A stretch of DNA of 64,000 nucleotides from Candidatus Bathyarchaeota archaeon (lineage in GTDB: Archaea; Thermoproteota; Bathyarchaeia; Bathyarchaeales; Bathycorpusculaceae), in assembly GCA_963780185.1 (NCBI GenBank), contig CAWABA010000006.1:832001-896000 (forward strand), written 5' to 3'. Shown in pieces: positions 21,805 to 61,485 of this stretch. Position 1 is the first letter of the stretch, and each line of letters opens with the position of its first letter. The notes under the pieces were generated by a model. It saw nothing but the letters and a program-made list of their open reading frames with translations. It did not search any database and was not told the origin of the DNA. A program made the position numbers and the translations under genes.

Positions 21805-23292
21805 TTAGATAGGTTTTTGGTTTCTTCCGCCGCTTTTCATTCTTCGCATCAGAAACACAAAGACAACGACAAAGCCTGCAATAACCGCCATTAGCACAGC
21901 AATTATCGCCAAAAGCATCGTTTGATCCAGCGCGACTGTGGTTTTTTGGCGTTGGGCGTTGGATGCGGCTGGTGTTGCTGATGTTGTTGGTTGGCTTGGC
22001 TGCGTTGTTTCCTGCTGGGTTGGGGTTGCGGTTGGCGTTCCAGTTGAATTCTGCGCAGGCGAGGGTGAGGTTGTAGCCGACAAGGTGGGTGGGGATGCGT
22101 TTTGGTTGGGCAGTGCTTCTGGATTTGGAGTTGTTAAGAATGGGTTGAAGTTGATGGTTCCCAATGTGAAGTCTTCTTTGTAATCGTACATTGTTTGGCT
22201 GATTGCGTTTTGGTCTGTTGTTCCCCACCAATTATTAGGCAAGTTAACTTGAGCTGATGCCTTGTTGACGAGTTTGACACTCAGCGTGTTGCCGTATATG
22301 TTGTTGTTCTGTATTGTTGAGGCATAGGGGGTTCCTATCTGGATTCCAACGGAATTATTGGTAACCGTGTTGTTTTCTATGACAGCTTGATTGTTGTTGG
22401 CGTTTTGAAAGTTAACGGTGATTCCCGTAGAGTTGTTGCTTACTAAATTGCGTTCGATCAAAGTTGACACTGGGCAACTATAGGTGTCAGCCACCGTTAA
22501 GCCTCCTGAGATCGTGTTGTCTGTTACGGTGCCGCTTCCCGCTTCAACGTAGAGGCCGCCCGTAATGATGTTGTTGGAAACTGCAGGTGACAGTTGGCTT
22601 GACGCCAGAGGAGTTTCACCGCCGCCGACAAGACCCCGGACCAAATCTATTCCGTCGATTAGGTTCAGCCCGCAAGCAATATTGTTATCAAAGACTATTG
22701 GTGAACCGCCCAGAAGGGTGAAGCTACCAACCTGCAGAAAATCGCAGTCTCTAATCATGGCTCCGTTTGCCACCTCAAAATCTGTTTGGTTAACAATTGC
22801 ATCTTCCACGATTGACCCTGAATTTGTGTTTTGATTCCATCCTTGACTGCTTGAATCGAACCTCACGGTTGAGGTCGATGCGAAAGGAGTTGGAAATTCA
22901 TGCCATTGTGCTGCGCCATTAAAGTGAATCGGGTTGTCGCTTGTGCCTACCGCAGACAGAACCCCGTTGACATCGATTGCGTCGCCTATTATGCCCATGT
23001 TTATGGCGGCGCCCGGCTGAATTATTACCGTGCCGTTGACCAATAGGTAGAAGCTGCCGAGGTTAACGGTTGCGTCTGTGCCGATTGTCAAAGTGACTCC
23101 TGGATTAACCAATACGTTTCCCGTGAAGTCGTAGGGGCTGCCTGCCTGCGTCCACGTTGTGTTCTGGCTGATTATGTAGCTTACGTTGGTTCCGCCCTGC
23201 GCTTTGCCAAGATGCAAAGAACCCACATAGATGAGTGACGACAAAATCAAAAATGCCAAAAAAAGGGTTTCACTTAGTCGGCGACTGTTCAT
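21805..23292 (-). CDS. Right-handed beta-helix surface protein with Pro/Thr linker and C-terminal TM
   Basis: NTTWTQAGSPY, Asn-rich repeats, NNWWGTTD. Confidence 0.85.
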   Translation of the reverse strand: MNSRRLSETLFLAFLILSSLIYVGSLHLGKAQGGTNVSYIISQNTTWTQAGSPYDFTGNVLVNPGVTLTIGTDATVNLGSFYLLVNGTVIIQPGAAINMGIIGDAIDVNGVLSAVGTSDNPIHFNGAAQWHEFPTPFASTSTVRFDSSSQGWNQNTNSGSIVEDAIVNQTDFEVANGAMIRDCDFLQVGSFTLLGGSPIVFDNNIACGLNLIDGIDLVRGLVGGGETPLASSQLSPAVSNNIITGGLYVEAGSGTVTDNTISGGLTVADTYSCPVSTLIERNLVSNNSTGITVNFQNANNNQAVIENNTVTNNSVGIQIGTPYASTIQNNNIYGNTLSVKLVNKASAQVNLPNNWWGTTDQNAISQTMYDYKEDFTLGTINFNPFLTTPNPEALPNQNASPPTLSATTSPSPAQNSTGTPTATPTQQETTQPSQPTTSATPAASNAQRQKTTVALDQTMLLAIIAVLMAVIAGFVVVFVFLMRRMKSGGRNQKPI

Positions 23293-42586: not shown

Positions 42587-45458
42587 TCAAAATCGTTTGC
42601 TCAGCGACTTGCGTTCAGCGTCCATTACCAACTCGTAGAATTTGTCCGAAAGCGAAGGCTCCTTTGACAGAACATCCGTTATGTCGGTCATGTAAACTCG
42701 CCTTGCGCTCAGAGCAACTGCCGCCGCCTTGCCATATGTTTCTATCAGTGCCGCGGTTTGTTTGGCGTGGAGTTGCAGTTTTTCCTCTTCTTTGGCTAAA
42801 TGCGCCCTCTTCTCAATCAGCGGCAAAGCCTTCTCCTCGTCAACTTTGAGCAGCCCCAACGCGTATGAGCCGCATCTTGGACACTTCGGTTTGTCAGGCA
42901 GGTCTTTTATGCGGAATGTCTCCATGTAGTCCCAGCAGCTTGTGCAGATGAAGTTGCCTGTTTCATTTAGCAATCGGGCTTTGGCTGCCGCAATTAGGAC
43001 GGCACGCATCTTTTCAGGCGGGATAAGGTCGGTTTTCATGCTGACACGTTCGATTCCGACTCTTGCGACGGGAGTTGCGTTGCCGCCTGTTTCGACAACT
43101 TGGAAGCCTACGTCGCCGCTTCGAATTCGATTAAGTACGAACACTAAGCCGTCTGCGTCGAGGTCCTTGCTGAAGACTTCTTTGAGGCCTTCCTCGTAAA
43201 TGGGCGTACCTTCAAAGCTTGAGATCAACTTCTGAATGCTCACGTTGCTAAAGTCAGCCCACTTCTTCAGCGCGCCAAAACGCCTTGCCACCTGAATTAC
43301 CCGCCGCTTAAACAAACCCGTCTTCACAGTTGACCGTGTAAGCGTGGCTTTAACAACTGGGTCGCTCATGCCTTTCAATTCGGTGAAGATTTCAACTATC
43401 CGCTCGGCGCTCATGGTGCCCATGGTTTGGACAAAGATGCGGTAAGGGTCATGTTGAACAACGATGCCTCGTCCAAGCTTGTCAGACAGCACTTCGCCAA
43501 GAAACTGAGCCAGCGCACGGTTGATTAGGGAGCCAAAGTTAGAGTGAATTATGACAAATTCGCCCCAATCCTCCACCACGACGCGCTTAGGTGTGGGAAC
43601 AGCCAAACCAGAGTGCACCTGCTCCACCGTCTCCTCCAGCGCCCGCAGAATTGTCTCTTGAGTGGCGGGGTAACGTTCCGAAAGCAAAGCACTTACCTCT
43701 TCAACCGAGACGCCCGCATGCATTTTTTCTTCGAGGATTCCGCGGATTTCCGCAAGCTCCTGCGCTACCTCGTATGGAACAGGGATTTCTTCGCCTATCC
43801 AGCTGGGAATGGAGCCTGAGGGGTCGTTAACTGGGCGCACGTATACCTTGTCTTCTGTGGCATGCATTATTTGCCATGGGCTGCCGCGTATAATGAATTT
43901 TGTTCCAGGCTTGCCATATTCCGCCATGAATGCTTCGTCTGAGCACGCCGATTGAAGTGTCCGTTGATTCGTCAATAACCAAAAACTGCTTCTCAACAGG
44001 AATCATTGACAGGTTATCAAAATAGTATTCGAACAGAGCTTTGGACCGCTGAGGCTTAAGCGCAACTTGGTCTTCAAAACTCACCCAAGCCAAACGCGGA
44101 AAACGCTCATGCATGTACTTGAAAGCTTTGCTGACGTCTTCCATAGTTAGGTTCTGGAAGGGTGCAGCGTTTCGCGCCAGTTCTAAGACTTCGGTAAATT
44201 CGAGGCGTCGGGTTTTGAGCATTAACCCAGCTATCTGATGCACTAAAACGTCGTAGGGTTTGTCGGGCATTTGAACGGGCTCTAGCGATTCGACGAGGGC
44301 TCTGCGGGCGATAACCAACGCTTCAAGGGTATCGTCAGAATCCATGCCTATGATTAAGCCCTCGGCGACTTGACCGTAGGTGTGTCCTGCCCGACCGACC
44401 CGCTGAATCAACCGGGTAACTTGCCGCGGACTCATGTACTGGATGACAAGGTCGATGCGTCCAACGTCGATGCCGAGTTCGAGGCTGCTGGTCGCAATTA
44501 AGCCTTTTAAGTCCCCACGCTTCAAGCCTTGTTCAGCAGTTATCCTTGACAGCTTGGCTAAGGATCCGTGGTGGATTGAAATTGGAAAATCGATGTCCCA
44601 AACTTTGAAGCGGGAAGCTAAAACTTCAGATATTGAACGGGTGTTGGTGAAGAGGAGCACGGATTTTCGTTTGCTCATGTAGTCGCGGATAATTCGCAGT
44701 CGGGCGGCTACTTCTGGATGTGTGTAAATTTTGTTGGCGAACCTCACGTCTTCTTCGGTTGGTTTTGGGTAAATTACTTCCAGCTTGACCATTTTGGCGA
44801 CGGGTACACGGATGATTTCGACGGGACGCTTTGTGCCTACGAGAAATTGGGCGACGACTTCTGGGCTGCCGATGGTGGCGGATAAGCCGATCATTTGAAA
44901 ATCTTTTCCAACAAGGCTCCTTACCCGCTCCAGCGCCAGTGACAGTTGGCTTCCCCGTTTGCTGTCAGCTAACTCGTGGACTTCGTCGATGATTACCCAC
45001 CGCAGGCTTTGCAGGTGCTGTCGCAGAACCCAGCCTGAAAGAATGGCCTGCAGGGTTTCGGGGGTGGTTATCAGGATGTCTGGTGGGCTGCGGGATTGAC
45101 GCATGCGTTCTTTGGTTTCGGTGTCCCCGTGCCGAACCGCCAGCTTGATGTCTAGGCTGTTGCACCACCATTGAAGCCTATCCAAAATGTCCCTGTTAAG
45201 AGACCTAAGAGGCGTGATATAGAGGACTTTTATGCCTGGAGTTTTGGGTTCCCGCAAAAGACTGCTCAGAACGGGCAAGAAGGCAGCTTCCGTTTTCCCT
45301 GTGGCTGTCGGCGAAATCAGCAGGACGTTTTTGCCTTCGAGGATTTTCGGGATGGTTTTTTCTTGGGGTTCGGTTGGTTTAAGGAATCCTCTCTGTTCAA
45401 CGAGCCTTCGAACTGGCTTTACAAGCAAATCAAAAGCGTTTTCAGAAGTTTCCTGCAA
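42587..45458 (-). CDS. lhr: Lhr-family SF2 helicase with C-terminal zinc finger, one frameshift near 43943
   Basis: PTATGKT, DEVH, SAT, HHGSL, QRVGRAGH; SIGVL joins DEAF across the shift. Confidence 0.92.
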
Positions 45459-47070: not shown

Positions 47071-47149
47071 GACTGGATAGCTTAGTTCGGACAGTAGAAC
47101 CCGCCTGCTAAGCGGATCGTCGGGGGTTCAAATCCCCTTCGAGTCGCCA
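47071..47149 (+). tRNA. Atypical or degenerate tRNA, anticodon GCT, short variable loop, encoded CCA
   Basis: Acceptor GACTGGA/TCGAGTC (one mismatch), anticodon arm CCGC-CTGCTAA-GCGG, T arm GGGGG-TTCAAAT-CCCCT, G73, CCA; D arm irregular. Confidence 0.7.
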
Positions 47150-47232
47150 TGTATATACTGTAAGATACCTTCACGTATATTTGTTTTGTGGAGCTAAGAA
47201 TCTGTTCTGTATAAGGCATTTTATTCTATATT

Positions 47233-47457
47233 TTGTTTTATGGTATCCTGTGGATATACCACAAGCCACAAATAGCTAGGACAATCTTATGGGATGCTGG
47301 AGCGTTCATTAATAACTGTTTCAGACCGCACCAAAGTTTTGGCGGTAAGACTCCAGCTCAAGCAGCAAGGATGAAGGCGCCCAACAACTGGAAAGGCTTG
47401 ATTGATGAAGCAACCAAGCTTGAAGCAATAACTTTAGTGAATGTTCTCAGTAATTAA
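47233..47457 (+). mobile_element. C-terminal fragment of a DDE transposase (IS6-like)
   Basis: NNCFRPHQSFGGKTPAQAA...NNWKGLI matches the YN..RPH..L.GKTPA..A tail of DDE/rve transposases. Confidence 0.65.
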
Positions 47458-47492
47458 ACAGAAGAAAAACTAGGAATGAAGGTTGTAAGTAA

Positions 47493-47663
47493 ATGAAGAA
47501 AATCTTAGTGTCTTTACCTGATGGTGTGGTCGAAATCTTGGACAAAGAATTAGTCGGCAAACTTGGAGAAGGATACAGCGATACACTAAGGCAAATTATC
47601 ATGAATTGGTTGAGCGAACAGGGATATTTGGCAAAAGGGGAAAACATGAACAAATCAAGTTGA
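47493..47663 (+). CDS. 56-aa ribbon-helix-helix (CopG-like) protein
   Basis: Below ORF-track cutoff; MKKILVSLPDGVVEILDKELVGKLGEGYSDTLRQIIMNWLSEQGYL. Confidence 0.72.
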   Translation: MKKILVSLPDGVVEILDKELVGKLGEGYSDTLRQIIMNWLSEQGYLAKGENMNKSS

Positions 47664-47813: not shown

Positions 47814-48080
47814 CTATTCAATCACTAATCCGATTTTGTCGCTTATCTCCTTCTTGTTCAAAACTTCGCAGTCACTATTGTCAAAGTTAGCGTGATTTGG
47901 GCAACCGAATGGATATTCCCAAAATGCTAATTCGACTGTCAATTCTTTGTTATCATTGCAGATAGGACATCGAACTTCATTATTCCAGACATGCATGTAT
48001 TCTTCACTCATCGCTCGCTCATCTACCGAAACAACGCCACCATAGCAAATCGTGCTATGAAATTGTGCCCTTTTTGACAT
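47814..48080 (-). CDS. Hypothetical acidic protein with CxxC and WEYP.G motif
   Basis: ORF track; N-terminus may be shifted from an ATG near 48130. Confidence 0.5.
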   Translation of the reverse strand: MSKRAQFHSTICYGGVVSVDERAMSEEYMHVWNNEVRCPICNDNKELTVELAFWEYPFGCPNHANFDNSDCEVLNKKEISDKIGLVIE

Positions 48081-48211: not shown

Positions 48212-48233
48212 TGTTAGGTAACTTAACCTAACA
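48212..48233. promoter_or_regulatory. 22-bp palindromic operator candidate
   Basis: TGTTAGGT-AACTTA-ACCTAACA, about 20 nt upstream of TATA-like CTTAAATG and the HTH gene. Confidence 0.6.
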
Positions 48234-48320
48234 GTATCGTTTTGGGGTAAGGCTTAAATGCTTAATCAGCGTGCGCTTACTATGTAAGCCACATGGTGCT
48301 TACTGTAGGAGCAAAACAAA

Positions 48321-48782
48321 ATGACCCTCAGCCTCGCCTACCTAACCCCCAAACAAAAAACAATATGGGACCTCAAAACCAGAGGAATCCAAGAAGCCCA
48401 CATCGCCAAAAAACTCGGCGTCACCAGACAAACCATCCACAAAGCCCTCGACACCGCCAACCTCAAAATCGGCGAAGCCCTAGCGGAAACCGCCAAAATC
48501 AACAAAATCGAAACCCAAAAAATCGACCCCGACAAAGGCTACCTCCTCGGCTACAGCAGCCACTTCAAAACAGCAGCCTTCATCACCTTCAGCGCCAAAA
48601 ACGGCGTCCAAGTCTGGTACAAACACGAAGGCGACTGCCAAAAATGCAGCCAACTCCAAACCTGCCGAGACGCCCTACTCGCCGAGGCTAAAGACCGCAA
48701 CTTCCTAATCTTGGATGACACCAGCAAGATTTTGCCCTCCCAATTAGCAGAAGCCTTAATCTCAAAAATAACAGGTGAATAA
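48321..48782 (+). CDS. HTH DNA-binding protein with C-terminal HxGxCxxCxxxxxC motif
   Basis: LTPKQKTIW...EAHIAKKLGVTRQTIHKAL; WYKHEGDCQKCSQLQTC. Confidence 0.85.
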   Translation: MTLSLAYLTPKQKTIWDLKTRGIQEAHIAKKLGVTRQTIHKALDTANLKIGEALAETAKINKIETQKIDPDKGYLLGYSSHFKTAAFITFSAKNGVQVWYKHEGDCQKCSQLQTCRDALLAEAKDRNFLILDDTSKILPSQLAEALISKITGE

Positions 48783-48784
48783 CA

Positions 48785-49977
48785 ATGGGTTTACTCAAAC
48801 GCCTAAAAGAGTTATTGAGTTGGTGTCCACAACCCCCTGACCGTTCCCCAACAAAACTCAAACGCTACTCAATCCCGATTGCTGTGGCGCTTGTGGCATC
48901 AATCGTGTTAGCTATGTCGTTTTCCGTTTTTTTCTGTAAACCTTCGCTTCTCAGCACCTGTTGCCGCCTGCTCCAGCGGTAAACCTTCCCACGTTGACGT
49001 CGGCGGGACCAATCACCATTGAGGCAGATGGAAGCGTTCAGCCAGCAAACGCCCCCATCCAACGAGACGAAGACATCTACATGTTAACCTCAAGCATATA
49101 CAACAGCCCCATAACGGTGCTAAGAAACAACATAGACGTTCTTGGGTCAGGCTACGCTTCACAAGGCATCGGCAGCGGGGTAGCTTTAAACTTAACGTGC
49201 ACTGGCGTATCAGTTACGGGCTTTAGCATTTCCAACTGGGCTGTCGGAGTCCTCGGCGTCTACTTGGCAACGCAGTCAGCAACTGCAACATAACGGGCAA
49301 CAACAGGGGCATCGCAATCTACGCTGACGATTACTCGGTGATAAACAATTATTTGGCGAATAACCAGTGGGCTGTTCGCATCCAAGGAAACGACAACACC
49401 GTTTCAAACAACCAAATAGTCGGCAACACCGAAGGCTTCTACATCACATCAAGCAGCGGAAACACAATTTACCGAAACGACATATCCAACAACCCCACAG
49501 CAATCTCAACTGACTACGGCGGCTTTGTCGTCTACGACAACAACTTCTCAAACAACACAACCCCAGTTGTCACAGCCTACGATGCCCTGTACGATGAGCA
49601 ACACTTCAGTGCGATGCCAAACTGGGATTACCATGGCGTCGGCAACTACTGGGCTGACTACCAAGCAAAATACCCCAATGCAGCAACAGACAGCTCGGGC
49701 GTGTGGAGTCAGCCTTACGTGGTAGACGCAAACTCCGGCATCGTTGACAACTACCCACTTTCCGCCCAGGTTCCGCTCTCTGACAGTGGCAGTGACCACG
49801 CAGACTTCTCAGCATAAGTTGGCGACCCCTTCGCTATACATAGTGCTAATTTACGCAGTAGCCGGAGTTACCATTGCACTCTTAGCGGTCCTAGCCTTCA
49901 TGACCTATCGGCAACAAAAAACTAAAGCTGCCGCAGTTGAAAGTAAGCAAGCGCTCACCGAGGCAGCGAAAGTATAG
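48785..49977 (+). CDS. WCPQP-motif membrane protein with NosD-like beta-helix domain, multiple frameshifts
   Basis: ORFs 48785, 48961, 49338 and 49744 form N-peptide + TM, beta-helix (GNYWADY...PYVVD...DNYPL), C-terminal TM. Confidence 0.75.
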
Positions 49978-50001
49978 TTTAAAAAACAAAGGTGAATATG
50001 C

Positions 50002-51437
50002 ATGCAGTTAAGGAAGAGACTTAAAGACTTTAGAAATTGGTGCCCGCAGCCCCCAGACCGTCTGCCTACAAAATTGAAGCGTTACTCGATGCCTATTGCG
50101 GCTGTGGTTACGGCTACCCTTATTTTATCCGTGTCATTTTTCGTATTTTCATCAAGCTTAATGCCGTCCGCTCCAATTGTGCCCTTAGTTAATGTGCCTG
50201 TTTCAGCAACTCCCACGTTACTCTGGAAACACAACATTAATGCTACTGAAGGCTACGGAGCTTCTTCTCCAGTGGTGGTCAACGGCGTAGTTTACACAAG
50301 CGAGAACAACTACGTTTACGCTCTAAACGCAACCGACGGCACCCAGCTCTGGGATTACTTCACAGGCGGCGGAGTTGTTTCTAAACCTGCAGTTGCCGAT
50401 GGTGTCGTTTACGTTAATACGGACTTTTCCATTGACGCTTTGAATGCTACTGACGGCTCGCAGATTTGGAGTAACGAGCCTCAACATGATGTGCCCGTTG
50501 GTTTCTCTTCTCCGACTGTTGCCGACGGAGTCGTCTATGCTGGCACAACCACTTTAGACACCATTTGGACAATCGTGAAGGCAACGTTTACGCCATAAAC
50601 GCAACCAACGGCAAAACAGTTTGGACCACTCCGCCCTTCGCTGGCTTCGCCACCGTTCCTTCATCGCCCACGGTCGCCGACGGGGTAGTCTACATAGGTG
50701 CTGAGGGCGCGTTTGGCTGGGATATTCGTCCAGGTACGTCAATAAGCCAGATTTGCTATGGCGTTTATGCTTTGAATGCTACGAGCGGAGCGCAACTCTG
50801 GAAGTACAACATAGGTTACTCCGGTGGGGCGTCTCCAGTTGTTGTCGGCGGAGTCGTCTACTACGTCCCAGAAGAAAATAACTTATTCGCATTAAACGCT
50901 ACGAGCGGCGCAGAAATCTGGAATTACAGCGCGCCCATGGGCAACCCCTCTCAAGGCAATCCTTACAATGTCAACGTTGATTCGTATCCTGCCGTTGTCG
51001 ACGGCATCGTGTACTTGGGCTCAGATGAAGGCAACGTTTACGCTTTCAACGCCGCCAGCGGCACTATACTCTGGAATTACACGATTGGCAAGGGAGCTCT
51101 GTCGACTCCCAATGTCGCCGATGGAGTTTTGCACGTTGGTTCATCTGATGACAATATTTACGCTTTGAACGCCACAAACGGTGTCGAACTGTGGAGCTAC
51201 CCCACCAGCGGCGCAGTTGATTCTCCAGCTGTAATCAACGGGGTGCTCTACGTGGGCGGAGGCAACAACATTTATGCTTTAAGAGTTTCACCTGCCATGA
51301 GTTCTTCGGTTAAGACGCACCTCTCTGTGCAAATTATGATCGGCGTAGTGGTTTTTGCATTCATTGTTGTTGCATTAGTGCTTGTTCTGGCGCTAAAAAG
51401 GAAATTAAAAACAGGTGACAAAGATGGGCATGCGTAA
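50002..51437 (+). CDS. WCPQP-motif membrane protein with PQQ-like beta-propeller, frameshift near 50565
   Basis: Repeats SSPxVxDGVVY...VYALNATxGxxLW in both pieces; N- and C-terminal TM. Confidence 0.85.
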
Positions 51438-57388: not shown

Positions 57389-59691
57389 TTATGCACCCAA
57401 ATATTTTGTTAAGGTGCTGGTGGATGCTCCGTTGACTGCGTCGCGGATTGTTTTCGCCGTATAACCCTTAAAGCTTAGCAGGTTGGCGGCTGAAGCGTAA
57501 AGCAGAAGCAGATACTTTTTTGTGTCGGCATGCACGCCCCTATCGATAAGCTGCTCCGCCACAACCCGTCTATGATGCCGTTTGTTTTCTGAATCTGTAA
57601 AAACAAAAGCCAAGTTTGTGCCCGCATTAACTTCCACGCCGCTCTTAACCAACTGCTCCGCCACAATCACTTGGCTTACATGCTGCCTGTAACTTTTAGG
57701 GTCCTTAGACAGGTGCTTAGTTATGATTAAATCCCAAACGGGAACTTCGCCGTTGATTAGTTTTTGCCGATAAGCCTTAACCACCTGCAGGGCGTCAGGG
57801 ATTTTCTGCGTAAACTCCGCTGAATTGTTTGCGGAAGCCAACACGTTGATCATTTCCATCTGGAGGTTGTAGATGAACCGCGGCGTATCTCTTCGGCGCA
57901 CCTCTAAACCTCTGACCTTGATTTTGCCGTTGTCCATGGCGCCGTAGTAACGGTTTAAGACGCTGACGCGGGGATGCATGGTGGAAGGCAAAAAAACAAT
58001 CCATTTGTAGCGTCCCTCAAAATTTATGGGAACCCCAATCTCGTCAGTAATCACCTTGCAGAGGTGACGGTACTCTTCCATGGTTGCGTTTTCTTTTTTT
58101 AGCCAGAACGAATCCACTATGCCGTGGATAACCTCGAAGCCTTCGTCTTCCGCGAGGTGTGTTGCTTTAAGAAAGGCTTCTCGGGCAAAAGCGCAGACGC
58201 CGATGTGCCCATCAACTGAACCGAATTTTGAGTTGCTAAAACCCAAGTAGCCGAAGCATGTGACCAAGATCCATTTTAGCGCTGTCTGACGTTTATCGTA
58301 CACCTGCTTAAGCGTTTTATCAGAAGTTTCATCCCGTAACCGTTTGTAGCTGAGCCGTTTGGTTAATGCCAGCTTGACGGTTTTCGGAACCATGCCGACG
58401 CGTTTTGTGCAGATGTGGTAGTTTAAGTCGGGAATCCTAATCGGGGAATCGGGGCAGCATTTGCAAAGCACTGTTTCCGCTGAAATATTGTATTTCGCCA
58501 TCAGGCTTGGGTACATGGAAGAGAAATCTAGTCCCCGATTGAATCATGCAGTCCCAGCCGTGGCTCAAAAACGAGTCCTCCGCGGTCGCCGACAAGCAGG
58601 TCAAGGGCTGATTTGAAGGCTTCAGTGTTTTTCTTGTTTCTCGGCAGCAAAATGTCGTCTTGCAGGGCTTGATAGTACTGGATAGAAGACATGCTGGAGC
58701 CGATTGAGAAACGCGCCGCCGTATGCAGGGGGACTCTGCAGGTTCGCGCTATTTCGATAAAGCCGTCTAAACCTGATTCGCCGATGATGAAGGTGTTATG
58801 TTCGTCAACGTGGATTCTGCCATAGAGTCGAATGGTGCTTGCCCGATAAAACGTGTGTCCATACGAAAAGAAAGTTTGCCCCGACGCAGTTTTCCTGCTG
58901 AAAGGCTTGTTGTCCCTGCTTAAAACAAACTGGTCTATGACGCCGTTTTCTGTTGCTCTGTGAATGAGGTATGGGAAAAGGTACGAGTCGCCTGACTGGG
59001 TTAAAATTATGTCGGGGTCTAACTTGTTTACCGCATAGACAAACTGCAACAGCTTAGTCGCTTCGTCGCCATAATCAATCGCAATCTCGTCTTGGTCATC
59101 CAGCTTTAAGGTGATGCTGCGGATTTCATCCTCGAAACCTGCGACAACGCCGCTTTTGGCAACATCCACCTCGAGCCTCAGGATACGCATCTGCGGAACG
59201 GCGTAGTCTATGCTTTCCACCGAATCCAAAAGCTTGTAATCCAAGCCTGATTTCCCGTATTTGACTTCCATAAAGGCAAGTGGGAACAAGCCGCGGCTGA
59301 AAAGGTACGAGCGGTCATCTTGGATGTCGCAGTTATAAAGTTCATAACGCAAATAATCGCCCATCCGCAGGATTTCAAGCGTTAACCCACGAATCGATCG
59401 GCAATCCTTAACCGTTACTTCTAGCACCGGGGATTTTTCGGCGTCCGTGGCTTGCGCGTATTTCTGCACGAACCGCACCGAAGCGATTTTCTCGTTATCG
59501 TATAGTCGGCTGATTAGGGTTTGGAGTTCGTCTTGTCTGCCTGAAACATAGATGCAGGGCTGAAACTTGTCAGTCAGCTTGACGCGTTCACCACTCTCCG
59601 TTATTACCCACACAGCAACTTTGCCGAAGTCGCTGGGGTAAACATCAAGCAGCCAACCCCTAATTGCCTTTGGCACGCTCATCTGCTGCAT
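57389..59691 (-). CDS. polB2: Family B DNA polymerase, PolB2 group, frameshift near 58530
   Basis: DRGGLVFEP, LDFSSMYPS across the shift, KWILVTCFGYLG, HGIVDS in place of YGDTDS, RGLEVRRRD. Confidence 0.9.
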
Positions 59692-60229: not shown

Positions 60230-61485
60230 TTACTCTGGAAACTTTAGTATGTTTTGGGAAAGGGTTCACTGACTTGGGTTAGCGTTTTTTCGATGCCTTC
60301 TAAAAAACATGATAGAAATGACAACTATCGCTAATATCACGATAGCAATTATTAACAGTTGAAACCAAGAACCTATCGTCAATATTGGATTTGGCGTTTA
60401 GACTACTGTGGGAATATCAACAGGTTGAGCTATTGGATGATGGTCAACATTATTCTGGTTAATAACGTAGCTTCCACCACCATTGTAATCACTCCAGTAG
60501 TTGCCAACTTTGCCGTTATCCCATGAAACTACTACTGTGCCGTTTGCTATTCCCGTGGAATTGTATGGATAGCTATTTTCAATCTTGACATTTTGCTTCG
60601 TGTTGTTAACAAAATTGTTGTTGTAAACTATGTTATTCGAACCTTGTGTTGGTCCAATATTTGACGTCACACTGACTATGAGGAAGTTCCTAAGATTAAT
60701 TCCATAGCTGTTGTCCTGCACGTTGTTCTCGCGAACGATTGTGTTGTTGCAGTTTCAAAGTCTAATCCAACCTTGTATCTGTCTTCAGTCTCATCATATC
60801 CACGGCTCCGGTTATGTTATTGCGGTAGATGTAACACCTGAGACACCTGCAAGGGAAATACCGTATGAATTGTCAAGATATTGTTGCCCGCTATCATTCA
60901 AATTCTTCGTTTGGAGTGCATCGATGCCTCTATAGTTCATTGATATTACGTTATTTGAAATGGCGCTATTAATAGTTTCTCTCAAGGTAGATGCCGTCTC
61001 CATTATTTGTGATGGTATTTCCGGCAATGAAAACCGGCGGAGTTCAATCCAATTCAAGTCCAAAAGAATTGTTCGCTATGTAATTTCGGTTAATCGAATT
61101 CCAGCAACTTGATTTGGGCTTCGAGTTACAATCGCCTCATGGCAATTTCAGATAGTGAACCCTGAACGAGGACGTTTGAGAAAAAATAACAATACTCTCT
61201 CCACCTTGGTTAATGTTTATTCCCAACTAAAACAGTGCTTTGTTCGTCCGTCCAACTAGTTCAAGGGTTTATTTATTTCCAAACCAAGTGCAAGATAATT
61301 TCCTCTCTTTACAAATACGGTTCTCCTTGCGCTAGCATTTCCGATGGCGGCGTAAATAGTTGGATATTGATCAGAACAATTCAGGGTTTTGGTTTTCGCC
61401 TTAACTATTCCGGGATAAAAACTAACTGTGGAGATTAAAAGTACCAAAACAAGCAGTAAACCCAAAGTCTTGTATTACTACCCAT
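60230..61485 (-). pseudogene. Fragmented NosD-like beta-helix surface protein
   Basis: Pieces: signal + YPTIYAAIGNA (61256-61465), Asn repeats (60812-61063), WDNGKVGNYWSDYNG (60398-60721), TM tail near 60300-60360; ends approximate. Confidence 0.7.

Follow-up and report, generated by a model that had tools for sequence, protein, structure and literature searches.

Introduction

The control of a soluble DNA-binding protein by a membrane partner is a known kind of regulation. For the parts of the locus described here, for its portable cysteine (Cys) tail, and for the link to the protein family DUF1673, no precedent was met in the papers found. The locus lies in a stretch of 64,000 nucleotides (nt) from Candidatus Bathyarchaeota archaeon (assembly GCA_963780185.1, 2.75 Mb in 13 contigs; contig CAWABA010000006.1, positions 832,001 to 896,000, forward strand), which is called the window throughout. 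At window positions 48321-51437, the gene of a helix-turn-helix (HTH) regulator is followed by two genes for membrane proteins that have near-identical WCPQPP tails at their N-termini. The pairing of Cys regulator and Cys tail suggests a so far undescribed coupling of gene control to the membrane. We lean, with modest confidence, towards reading the locus as the autoregulated operon of a widespread, previously undescribed archaeal two-part module, in which a repressor would be docked to membrane tails through a shared Cys-metal site. In the literature covered, which lies outside most subscription journals and supplements, neither the motif nor DUF1673 was linked to a Tfx-like regulator.

Closest described systems

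The nearest described regulators are Tfx and EnfR (TIGR00721, TFX_C; PDB 8HNO, 1NR3). Like the regulator of the window, they have about 150 amino acids (aa), an N-terminal HTH of the sigma-70-region-4/LuxR kind, a long helix, and a C-terminal alpha+beta domain. EnfR is a dimeric repressor acting on a palindromic promoter site and, in the accessible part of the paper, its authors describe Tfx-type regulators as having no effector-binding domain and suggest an anti-repressor (PMC10570040). The window regulator differs from them: its C-terminal domain is not TFX_C by sequence and carries a CX2CX5C cluster, and it has an obligate-looking membrane partner, whereas none of 16 canonical Tfx loci used as a control has a membrane neighbor with a Cys tail. 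Canonical Tfx and the present family coexist in some genomes.

A second comparison is with extracytoplasmic function (ECF) sigma factors and their membrane anti-sigma partners (SigI-RsgI, zinc anti-sigma proteins). There, too, a gene with a region-4-like HTH directly precedes that of a single-pass membrane protein, the partner combines a short cytoplasmic N-terminus with a variable outside domain, and the operon appears autoregulated; by analogy, Cys-metal chemistry may operate at the presumed interface in both cases. However, the Cys cluster discussed here is in the DNA-binding protein, not in the anti-factor, and the cytoplasmic part of the partner is a tail of ∼28 aa with a single Cys and not an anti-sigma domain such as the zinc type (HxxxCxxC), the N-terminal piece having no Pfam match. 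The regulator cannot itself be a sigma factor, because sigma region 2 is absent: Sigma70_r2 has no match on it, and only HTH families are matched, all below their cut-offs. To our knowledge, archaea do not use sigma factors.

Sequestration of the repressor Mlc by the transporter PtsG offers a further parallel, in that the cytoplasmic part of a transport protein would in both cases hold a soluble repressor at the membrane. Sequestration of this kind fits best those members of the present family that are paired with permeases. The proteins are unrelated, and the putative capture element here is a portable N-terminal tail that occurs on many kinds of membrane protein.

With the WhiB-like (Wbl) proteins, the regulator shares its CX2CX5C spacing, which is identical to that of C37, C40, and C46 of WhiB1; these residues and C9 are the ligands of its [4Fe-4S] cluster (PMC6282962). 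Both kinds of protein are small transcription factors, and the partner contact of Wbl proteins is cluster-dependent. According to the same paper, Wbl proteins have their fourth Cys in cis, possess a G[VI]WGG turn, and are confined to Actinobacteria. In contrast, the regulator has no fourth conserved cis Cys, no G[VI]WGG in its alignment, and an unrelated fold.

Lastly, DUF1673 (PF07895) proteins are the partners of the regulator family in Halobacteriota, and the MGWCP motif is their Cys tail; the window partners share this tail logic only, and not the membrane domain. Makarova et al. 2014 list the family as "MGWCP motif, DUF1673", function unknown (arCOG06827); DUF1673 is a long-standing "dark matter" family and is expanded in Methanosarcina.

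Pairing of regulator and tail across genomes

The genes of regulator and tail are linked across genomes. In the source genome, all three WCPxP tails follow one of two Cys-type regulator paralogues, and two of these tails are in the window. The second Cys-type module (L001; contig 6, 56540-60500) has a regulator 80% identical to that of the window and is followed by an ABC transporter. The genome also holds a module of a Cys-less type (L002; contig 11, 58800-62154), in which four genes with RGW[FL]P tails stand in tandem. Another module of that type (L003; contig 5, 107660-108105), the third besides that of the window, is decayed and has stops in both the regulator and the tail gene.

Public genomes were scanned with one genome per species, which gave 41 loci, mostly from Bathyarchaeia, plus one from Geoglobus and three from Asgard lineages. 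All 41 regulator genes have an adjacent or overlapping downstream gene whose product begins with a basic tail containing one Cys and continues with a transmembrane (TM) helix. The partner is on the same strand, usually overlapping or within ∼45 nt, and its tail Cys is usually followed by Pro. At the level of the genus (46 genomes), 36 of the 39 tail matches stand in same-strand arrays directly after a Cys-type regulator, the remaining three being two weak matches (E 0.003 and 0.008) and one true orphan; conversely, 21 of 24 Cys-type regulators adjoin a tail gene.

Among 40 further Bathyarchaeia loci, hand-picked for spread over families, a downstream Cys-tail partner accompanies 31 of the 39 Cys-type regulators, and the tails come in clade-specific flavors (GWCPG, WC[RQ]QPER, PMCPKPPP). 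One clade has no downstream partner; in the four loci inspected, all have instead a divergent amino-acid permease (PF13520) with an N-terminal E[YF]C...P tail. In one locus of this clade (L123, 5257-5787 and 8198-10473), two regulators lie 3 kb apart, and the second alone faces a permease with an E-F-C tail.

The phylum of the Geoglobus genome, Halobacteriota, was sampled with 401 genomes, of which 51 carry the regulator. All 29 loci read have a downstream partner starting with ...KLMGWCPN... or ...GLCRKPP..., and of 26 partners compared with the DUF1673 profile, 16 exceed its cut-off. In five one-contig genomes, each of the 20 above-cut-off DUF1673 matches belongs to an array of one to eight genes that adjoins a regulator gene. 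The original prediction, made from the sequence alone, had pointed to a WCP motif in the DUF1673 proteins of Methanosarcina. This link agrees with the listing of Makarova et al. 2014 and with the position of DUF1673 genes directly after members of the regulator family. PF07895 itself has no match on the pieces of the window partners, in the whole source genome, or on the scanned Bathyarchaeia partners.

The module in the window

The window has every feature of the module, namely a CX2CX5C regulator, an adjacent gene with a one-Cys tail, and a GTAAR-N10-YTTAC repeat after a TATA box (Table 1). The ATG of membrane protein 1 is 2 nt past the regulator stop, and membrane protein 2 starts 24 nt past the stop at 49977. 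Their N-termini, MGLLKRLKELLSWCPQPPDRSPTKLKRYSIPIA and MQLRKRLKDFRNWCPQPPDRLPTKLKRYSMPIA, respectively, are each followed by a hydrophobic helix, and both proteins end with another hydrophobic helix and then basic residues. Between the helices are unrelated ectodomains, which Pfam assigns to NosD/Beta_helix (E 8e-10) in membrane protein 1 and to a PQQ_2 propeller (E 4e-34) in membrane protein 2. All features named in the original prediction are present where it had placed them: the palindrome and TATA-like box upstream, the HTH protein with its HxGxCxxCxxxxxC motif, the gene spacing, the near-copied N-termini, and the unrelated ectodomains with a second TM helix. A NosD-like gene elsewhere in the window has a plain signal peptide (Table 1), again in line with the prediction. 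Its interpretation of these features, taken as a whole, is partly supported, as detailed below.

Partner types and the nature of the input

The range of partners is wide and includes beta-propellers, beta-helices, small polytopic proteins, and amino-acid permeases. A propeller or beta-helix ectodomain between two TM helices is present in 17 of the 43 Bathyarchaeia partners scanned, and one regulator serves one to four different ectodomains. It was from such an arrangement that the original prediction had deduced receptors with swappable ectodomains, in which ligand binding to the ectodomain, or its cleavage, would free a tethered regulator as in SigI-RsgI, with the palindrome TGTTAGGT-N6-ACCTAACA as operator. 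The variety of ectodomains in Bathyarchaeia speaks for this model. However, other clades pair the regulator with permeases, small polytopic proteins, and DUF1673 proteins that lack a large ectodomain, the palindrome is not conserved, and no protease gene was found in the module in the loci read. The idea of receptors with swappable ectodomains is thus weakened, and we consider the model in this narrow form distinctly unlikely.

What, then, could be the common input? A ligand of the ectodomain cannot fill this role, because the partners include permeases and small polytopic proteins without one, so that sensing by the ectodomain is not a common principle. The amount or conformation of the membrane protein, or the chemistry of a shared metal center, fits better.

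Another possibility concerns the tail itself, which occupies the position of the n-region of a signal peptide. Similar ectodomains elsewhere have plain signal peptides together with the same C-terminal anchor, and tail and first helix might form one long signal peptide that, once cleaved and retained in the membrane, binds the regulator, the module gauging the flux of secretion. Two observations make this very unlikely: the hydrophobic stretch has ∼20 residues or more and is TM-like, and the permease and polytopic partners have no cleaved signal peptide.

Fold and family of the regulator

Profile matches of the regulator are weak. HTH_11 is matched at E 7e-4, and TIGR00721 (Tfx) at E 4e-5 over residues 6-53, with a whole-protein score of 23.5 bits that is below the cut-off of 60.25. 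Comparison by hhalign with an alignment of 14 canonical Tfx proteins gives a probability of 95.5% and E 1.6e-8 for residues 3-53 only, and no alignment past residue 53. TFX_C (PF14601) has no match on the regulator and, with E values up to 1 allowed, none in the whole genome.

The AlphaFold model (pLDDT 84.7) comprises two short helices, a long helix (residues 36-60), four strands, and two helices, with the three Cys between strand 4 and the helix that follows it. Its N-terminal part aligns with LuxR/GerE/sigma region 4 domains, and VIA-align superposes 60 residues on EnfR (8hno_B) with Z 7.5 and a root-mean-square deviation of 2.4. EnfR is also top-ranked by Foldseek for the whole model, but with E 0.03 and a TM score of 0.36-0.39; the nearest named ESM-Atlas clusters are Tfx (0.87-0.88). 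The C-terminal domain, with four strands plus two helices, is the one that carries the CX2CX5C cluster. Its model (pLDDT 86.6) has only weak, partial beta-meander matches in the PDB (best Foldseek E 0.11, best VIA-align Z 5.3), and EnfR is absent among the listed matches.

Because the resemblance to Tfx is limited to the HTH, and the C-terminal domain has neither a TFX_C signal nor a convincing structural neighbor, the regulator is treated here as belonging to a separate family that shares a Tfx-type DNA-binding head. This family is small: 1.84 billion proteins contain 441 representatives of it at E up to 1e-3. Of eight longer proteins inspected as possible natural fusions of regulator and partner, none is clean; one of them (P0180) seems to be a frameshifted read-through that runs on into a tail gene of the GLCRKPP kind.

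The cysteines of regulator and tail

Four Cys are conserved in the module. In an alignment of 24 regulators, C106, C109, and C115 are invariant, and a fourth conserved Cys in cis is absent. Across 24 aligned tails, no column other than the Cys is invariant, in keeping with the original prediction, and the next best is the Pro three residues on. The His of the HxGxC motif, which the prediction had also pointed out, is present in the window, but its role as a ligand is weakened by its replacement with Gly or Asp in several lineages. The three tails of the source genome differ at synonymous sites, so that the conservation is at the protein level; conservation of the tail as a DNA element was considered and rejected for this reason.

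A sister clade of regulators has no Cys and shows WYWHDNPEEVTDxxFLxQT at the position of the cluster. Among 30 loci of this clade, 25 partners start at an ATGA stop/start overlap and two further downstream, and in three none was found; all 27 tails read RGW[FLVI]P, and Cys never occurs. In a quick tree, which includes some duplicate rows from two query alignments, all Cys-less regulators fall in one long-branched clade, plus the regulator of L086, which has lost its second Cys and has no partner. In two loci (L022, 5001-8312, and L016), a Cys-type module is found beside a Cys-less regulator gene, and the two systems therefore coexist without merging.

This joint loss of Cys in one clade fits the idea that the tail may lend its Cys to a metal site of the regulator. 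The stronger argument is that a single Cys persists in tails that are otherwise unalignable, on unrelated membrane architectures and in three phyla-level groups; such tails stand almost always beside a regulator that has three Cys and a free fourth position.

Is contact between tail and regulator needed at all? It may be that the regulator controls its operon only and that the tail has a separate job and never touches it, an account that we find rather unlikely. Such jobs could be insertion or topology, attachment of a metal, heme, or lipid to the Cys, turnover, or pausing of the ribosome at the Pro-rich stretch. Co-regulation alone would explain the adjacency of the genes, orphan regulators and one orphan tail protein exist, and Cys-Pro pairs and Pro-rich stretches occur in many tails, including Cys-Pro in both tails of the window; the Cys-Pro dipeptide is known as a heme-regulatory motif, in which it provides a heme ligand. 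However, neither Cys-Pro nor Pro-Pro is invariant in the family, where WCRMPP, WCQQPS, FCLEQP, and EFCILKP occur. A separate job also gives no reason for the tail to lose its Cys exactly where the regulator loses three, or for the tails to be found almost only beside this regulator family, on propellers, permeases, and DUF1673 proteins alike.

Promoter and candidate operator

The original prediction had proposed the palindrome as operator, and this part of it is not supported. The palindrome is one of 171 inverted repeats in the window (arms of at least 8 nt, distance up to 12), so that its class is not rare, and it is absent at the same place both in L008, the regulator of which is 98% identical, and in the paralogous locus L001. 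It may belong instead to the divergent gene upstream, which encodes an 88-aa protein with two Cys pairs recognized by eye (CPIC, later GC...C).

A different repeat, downstream of the TATA box, is conserved. A TATA-like box comes first, (G)CTTAC-N3-GTAAG(C)-N8-(G)CTTAC follows, and the start codon is 10-20 nt later. In most related loci, the A/T box recurs with unchanged spacing to the start codon, and it is probably the promoter element of the operon. Among 42 Cys-type loci, 37 have GTAAG-N9-11-CTTAC, and 26 have CTTAC-N3-GTAAG as well. A loose version, GTNAR-N8-12-YTNAC, is present in 28/30, 24/40, and 29/29 loci of three further sets, versus 3.7% of random windows. The promoters of the Cys-less clade have GTAAAT-N-ATTTAC after the TATA box, and GTAAAC/GTTTAC repeats are seen by eye in the Geoglobus and Hodarchaeota loci.

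In the window, this operator-like repeat is a pair of overlapping inverted repeats that spans the site where transcription is expected to begin, since archaeal transcription usually starts ∼25 nt past the TATA box. Overlap with the start site is the usual position of a repressor, and binding of the regulator to this repeat, with repression as its effect, is what we infer. In the source genome, the composite site is found only at the two paralogous regulator promoters, and single half-palindromes are at about the level of chance; there is accordingly no support for the composite operator as the mark of a wider regulon in this genome.

Proposed mechanism

The reading that we favor, an autoregulated operon with a membrane-docked repressor, can be set out as follows. 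Its first part would be a small dimeric repressor with a Tfx-type HTH and a family-specific C-terminal CX2CX5C domain, and its second part between one and eight membrane proteins of nearly every type. Each of these starts with a short, basic, cytoplasmic tail in which one invariant Cys, as a rule with a Pro behind it, stands immediately ahead of the first TM helix. The repressor would bind GTAAR-N10-YTTAC, a repeat overlapping the point where transcription of its own operon begins. Its C-terminal domain would be the docking site for the tails of the membrane proteins encoded with it, the tail Cys becoming the fourth ligand of a metal center, with Zn or Fe-S, on the three Cys of the regulator. 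Docking would keep the repressor at the membrane and lift repression, and the direction of the response would thus be such that transcription mirrors how abundant the membrane proteins are or what state they are in, or the redox or metal state of the shared center. Of all this, the linkage of the genes, the four conserved Cys, their joint loss in one clade, and the conserved operator-like repeat are observed, whereas DNA binding, repression, docking, the metal, and the direction of the response are inferred.

A bolder form of this proposal is that the three regulator Cys and the tail Cys form one intermolecular center, possibly a WhiB-like [4Fe-4S] cluster, so that the tether itself is the sensor. 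We put this forward tentatively, as possible and no further than that. The spacing equal to that of WhiB1, where the fourth Cys is distant, makes an Fe-S center with a fourth Cys in trans a serious option in these anaerobes, and Zn is the plainer alternative. If the proposal is true, oxygen, redox state, or the supply of iron or sulfur would make or break the tether.

Several observations weigh against a docked repressor with a shared metal site. In most clades, a His is located four or five residues before the first Cys and could fill the last position of the site with no help from the tail. The joint loss of Cys amounts to essentially one event and is therefore an anecdote rather than statistics, and kin are not independent. 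Simple one-to-one titration would be overwhelmed in arrays where as many as eight tail genes share one regulator. In L076 and L077, the regulator keeps its three Cys and the operator, and the adjacent partner is absent; in L089, the gene that follows the regulator has a plain signal peptide; and L100 and L103 are also among the exceptions to the pairing. The orphan of the genus sample (L075, 1380-2966, minus strand) encodes a 529-aa protein with a WCPQPQ tail and is preceded by a signal-peptide surface protein; no regulator is close to it, and its genome, 91% complete, yielded none of the Cys type. Finally, the partner calls were made by scripts plus reading of N-termini, and start codons are uncertain. 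Prediction of the complex from the regulator alignment, Zn, and the tail alignment, run without controls, gave an ipSAE of 0.02, which speaks neither for nor against docking.

Frame breaks and surroundings of the module

Both membrane protein genes of the window are interrupted, a point absent from the original prediction. That of membrane protein 1 has breaks near 48933-48948, 49264-49266, and 49784-49821 and occupies four frames; that of membrane protein 2 has one at 50550-50568 and occupies two. Four frame breaks within 2.6 kb could mean that these genes are decaying pseudogenes and that the arrangement has no function here. This is highly implausible in the light of short-read contigs from two runs (X1 and X2, depth 2-4), which cover the stretch with large gaps, one of them at the break 49784-49821, and which carry frame-restoring indels exactly at the other three of the four breaks. 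At 48933-48948, the net change is -2 in both runs; behind 49264, X2 has +1, and the closest relative likewise carries +1 at 49266; and in the break of membrane protein 2, X1 has an extra C at 50563/50564, with 0 mismatches on either flank. Intact homologues are common, and those of membrane protein 2 in L005 and L006 have 477-494 aa.

Splitting of this kind also affects other genes of the window. Those of an Lhr-type helicase, a family B DNA polymerase, and a beta-helix surface protein each extend across two or three frames, which suggests that indel errors are common in the assembly. Because the short reads restore three of the four breaks and these other genes are split alike, the breaks are probably assembly errors or strain variants rather than decay.

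Directly upstream of the module are a tRNA gene and two short frames that, by eye, resemble the end of a transposase or integrase and a ribbon-helix-helix protein; together, window 47071-47663 may be the remnant of an integrated element. A further frame, rich in Pro, Gln, Arg, and Asn, overlaps the regulator gene. The coding strand there is unusually A+C-rich (GC skew -0.41, AT skew +0.53), and this frame is therefore probably a by-product of strand composition.

Table 1. Coordinates of the module, its promoter region, and other features of the window
Feature	Position	Strand	Remarks
NosD-like comparison gene	21805-23292	-	plain signal peptide
Lhr-type helicase	42590-45458	-	DEAD plus DEAD_assoc
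tRNA gene	47071-47146		upstream of module
Short frame	47233-47457		end of transposase or integrase, by eye
56-aa frame	47493-47663		ribbon-helix-helix protein, by eye
88-aa protein	47814-48080	-	divergent
Palindrome TGTTAGGT-N6-ACCTAACA	48212-48233		upstream of TATA box, in intergenic region shared with 47814-48080
BRE (transcription factor B recognition element)/TATA-like box AAGGCTTAAATGC (AAGGCTTAAATG)	about 48249-48261	+	putative promoter element
Candidate operator	48275-48303		GCTTAC (48275-48280), N3, GTAAGC (48284-48289), N8, GCTTAC (48298-48303)
132-aa frame	48293-48691	+	overlaps regulator gene in a different frame
Regulator gene	48321-48782	+	153 aa; HTH; contains KHEGDCQKCSQLQTC
Regulator C106, C109, C115 codons	48636-48638, 48645-48647, 48663-48665	+	from sequence
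Membrane protein 1	48785-49977	+	cytoplasmic tail, TM helix, NosD/beta-helix ectodomain, C-terminal TM anchor; four frames
Membrane protein 1 tail Cys codon	48824-48826	+	from sequence
Membrane protein 2	50002-51437	+	same type of tail, TM helix, PQQ_2-like beta-propeller, C-terminal TM anchor; one break
Membrane protein 2 tail Cys codon	50041-50043	+	from sequence
Family B DNA polymerase	57392-59691	-	split gene
Beta-helix surface protein	60398-61465	-	split gene

Implications

Few routes from the membrane to transcription are known in archaea, and Tfx-type regulators are without a known input. For the sister family of Tfx described here, the near-fixed Cys-tail partner points to an input mechanism that is testable. 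The DUF1673/MGWCP family, in turn, gains a link to a regulator and a concrete hypothesis, and Methanosarcina is genetically manipulable. Should the tether indeed be built around a metal center shared by regulator and tail, it would be a new membrane-to-transcription wiring of archaea, extending from Bathyarchaeia and methanogen relatives to Asgard, and it would give DUF1673 its first function.

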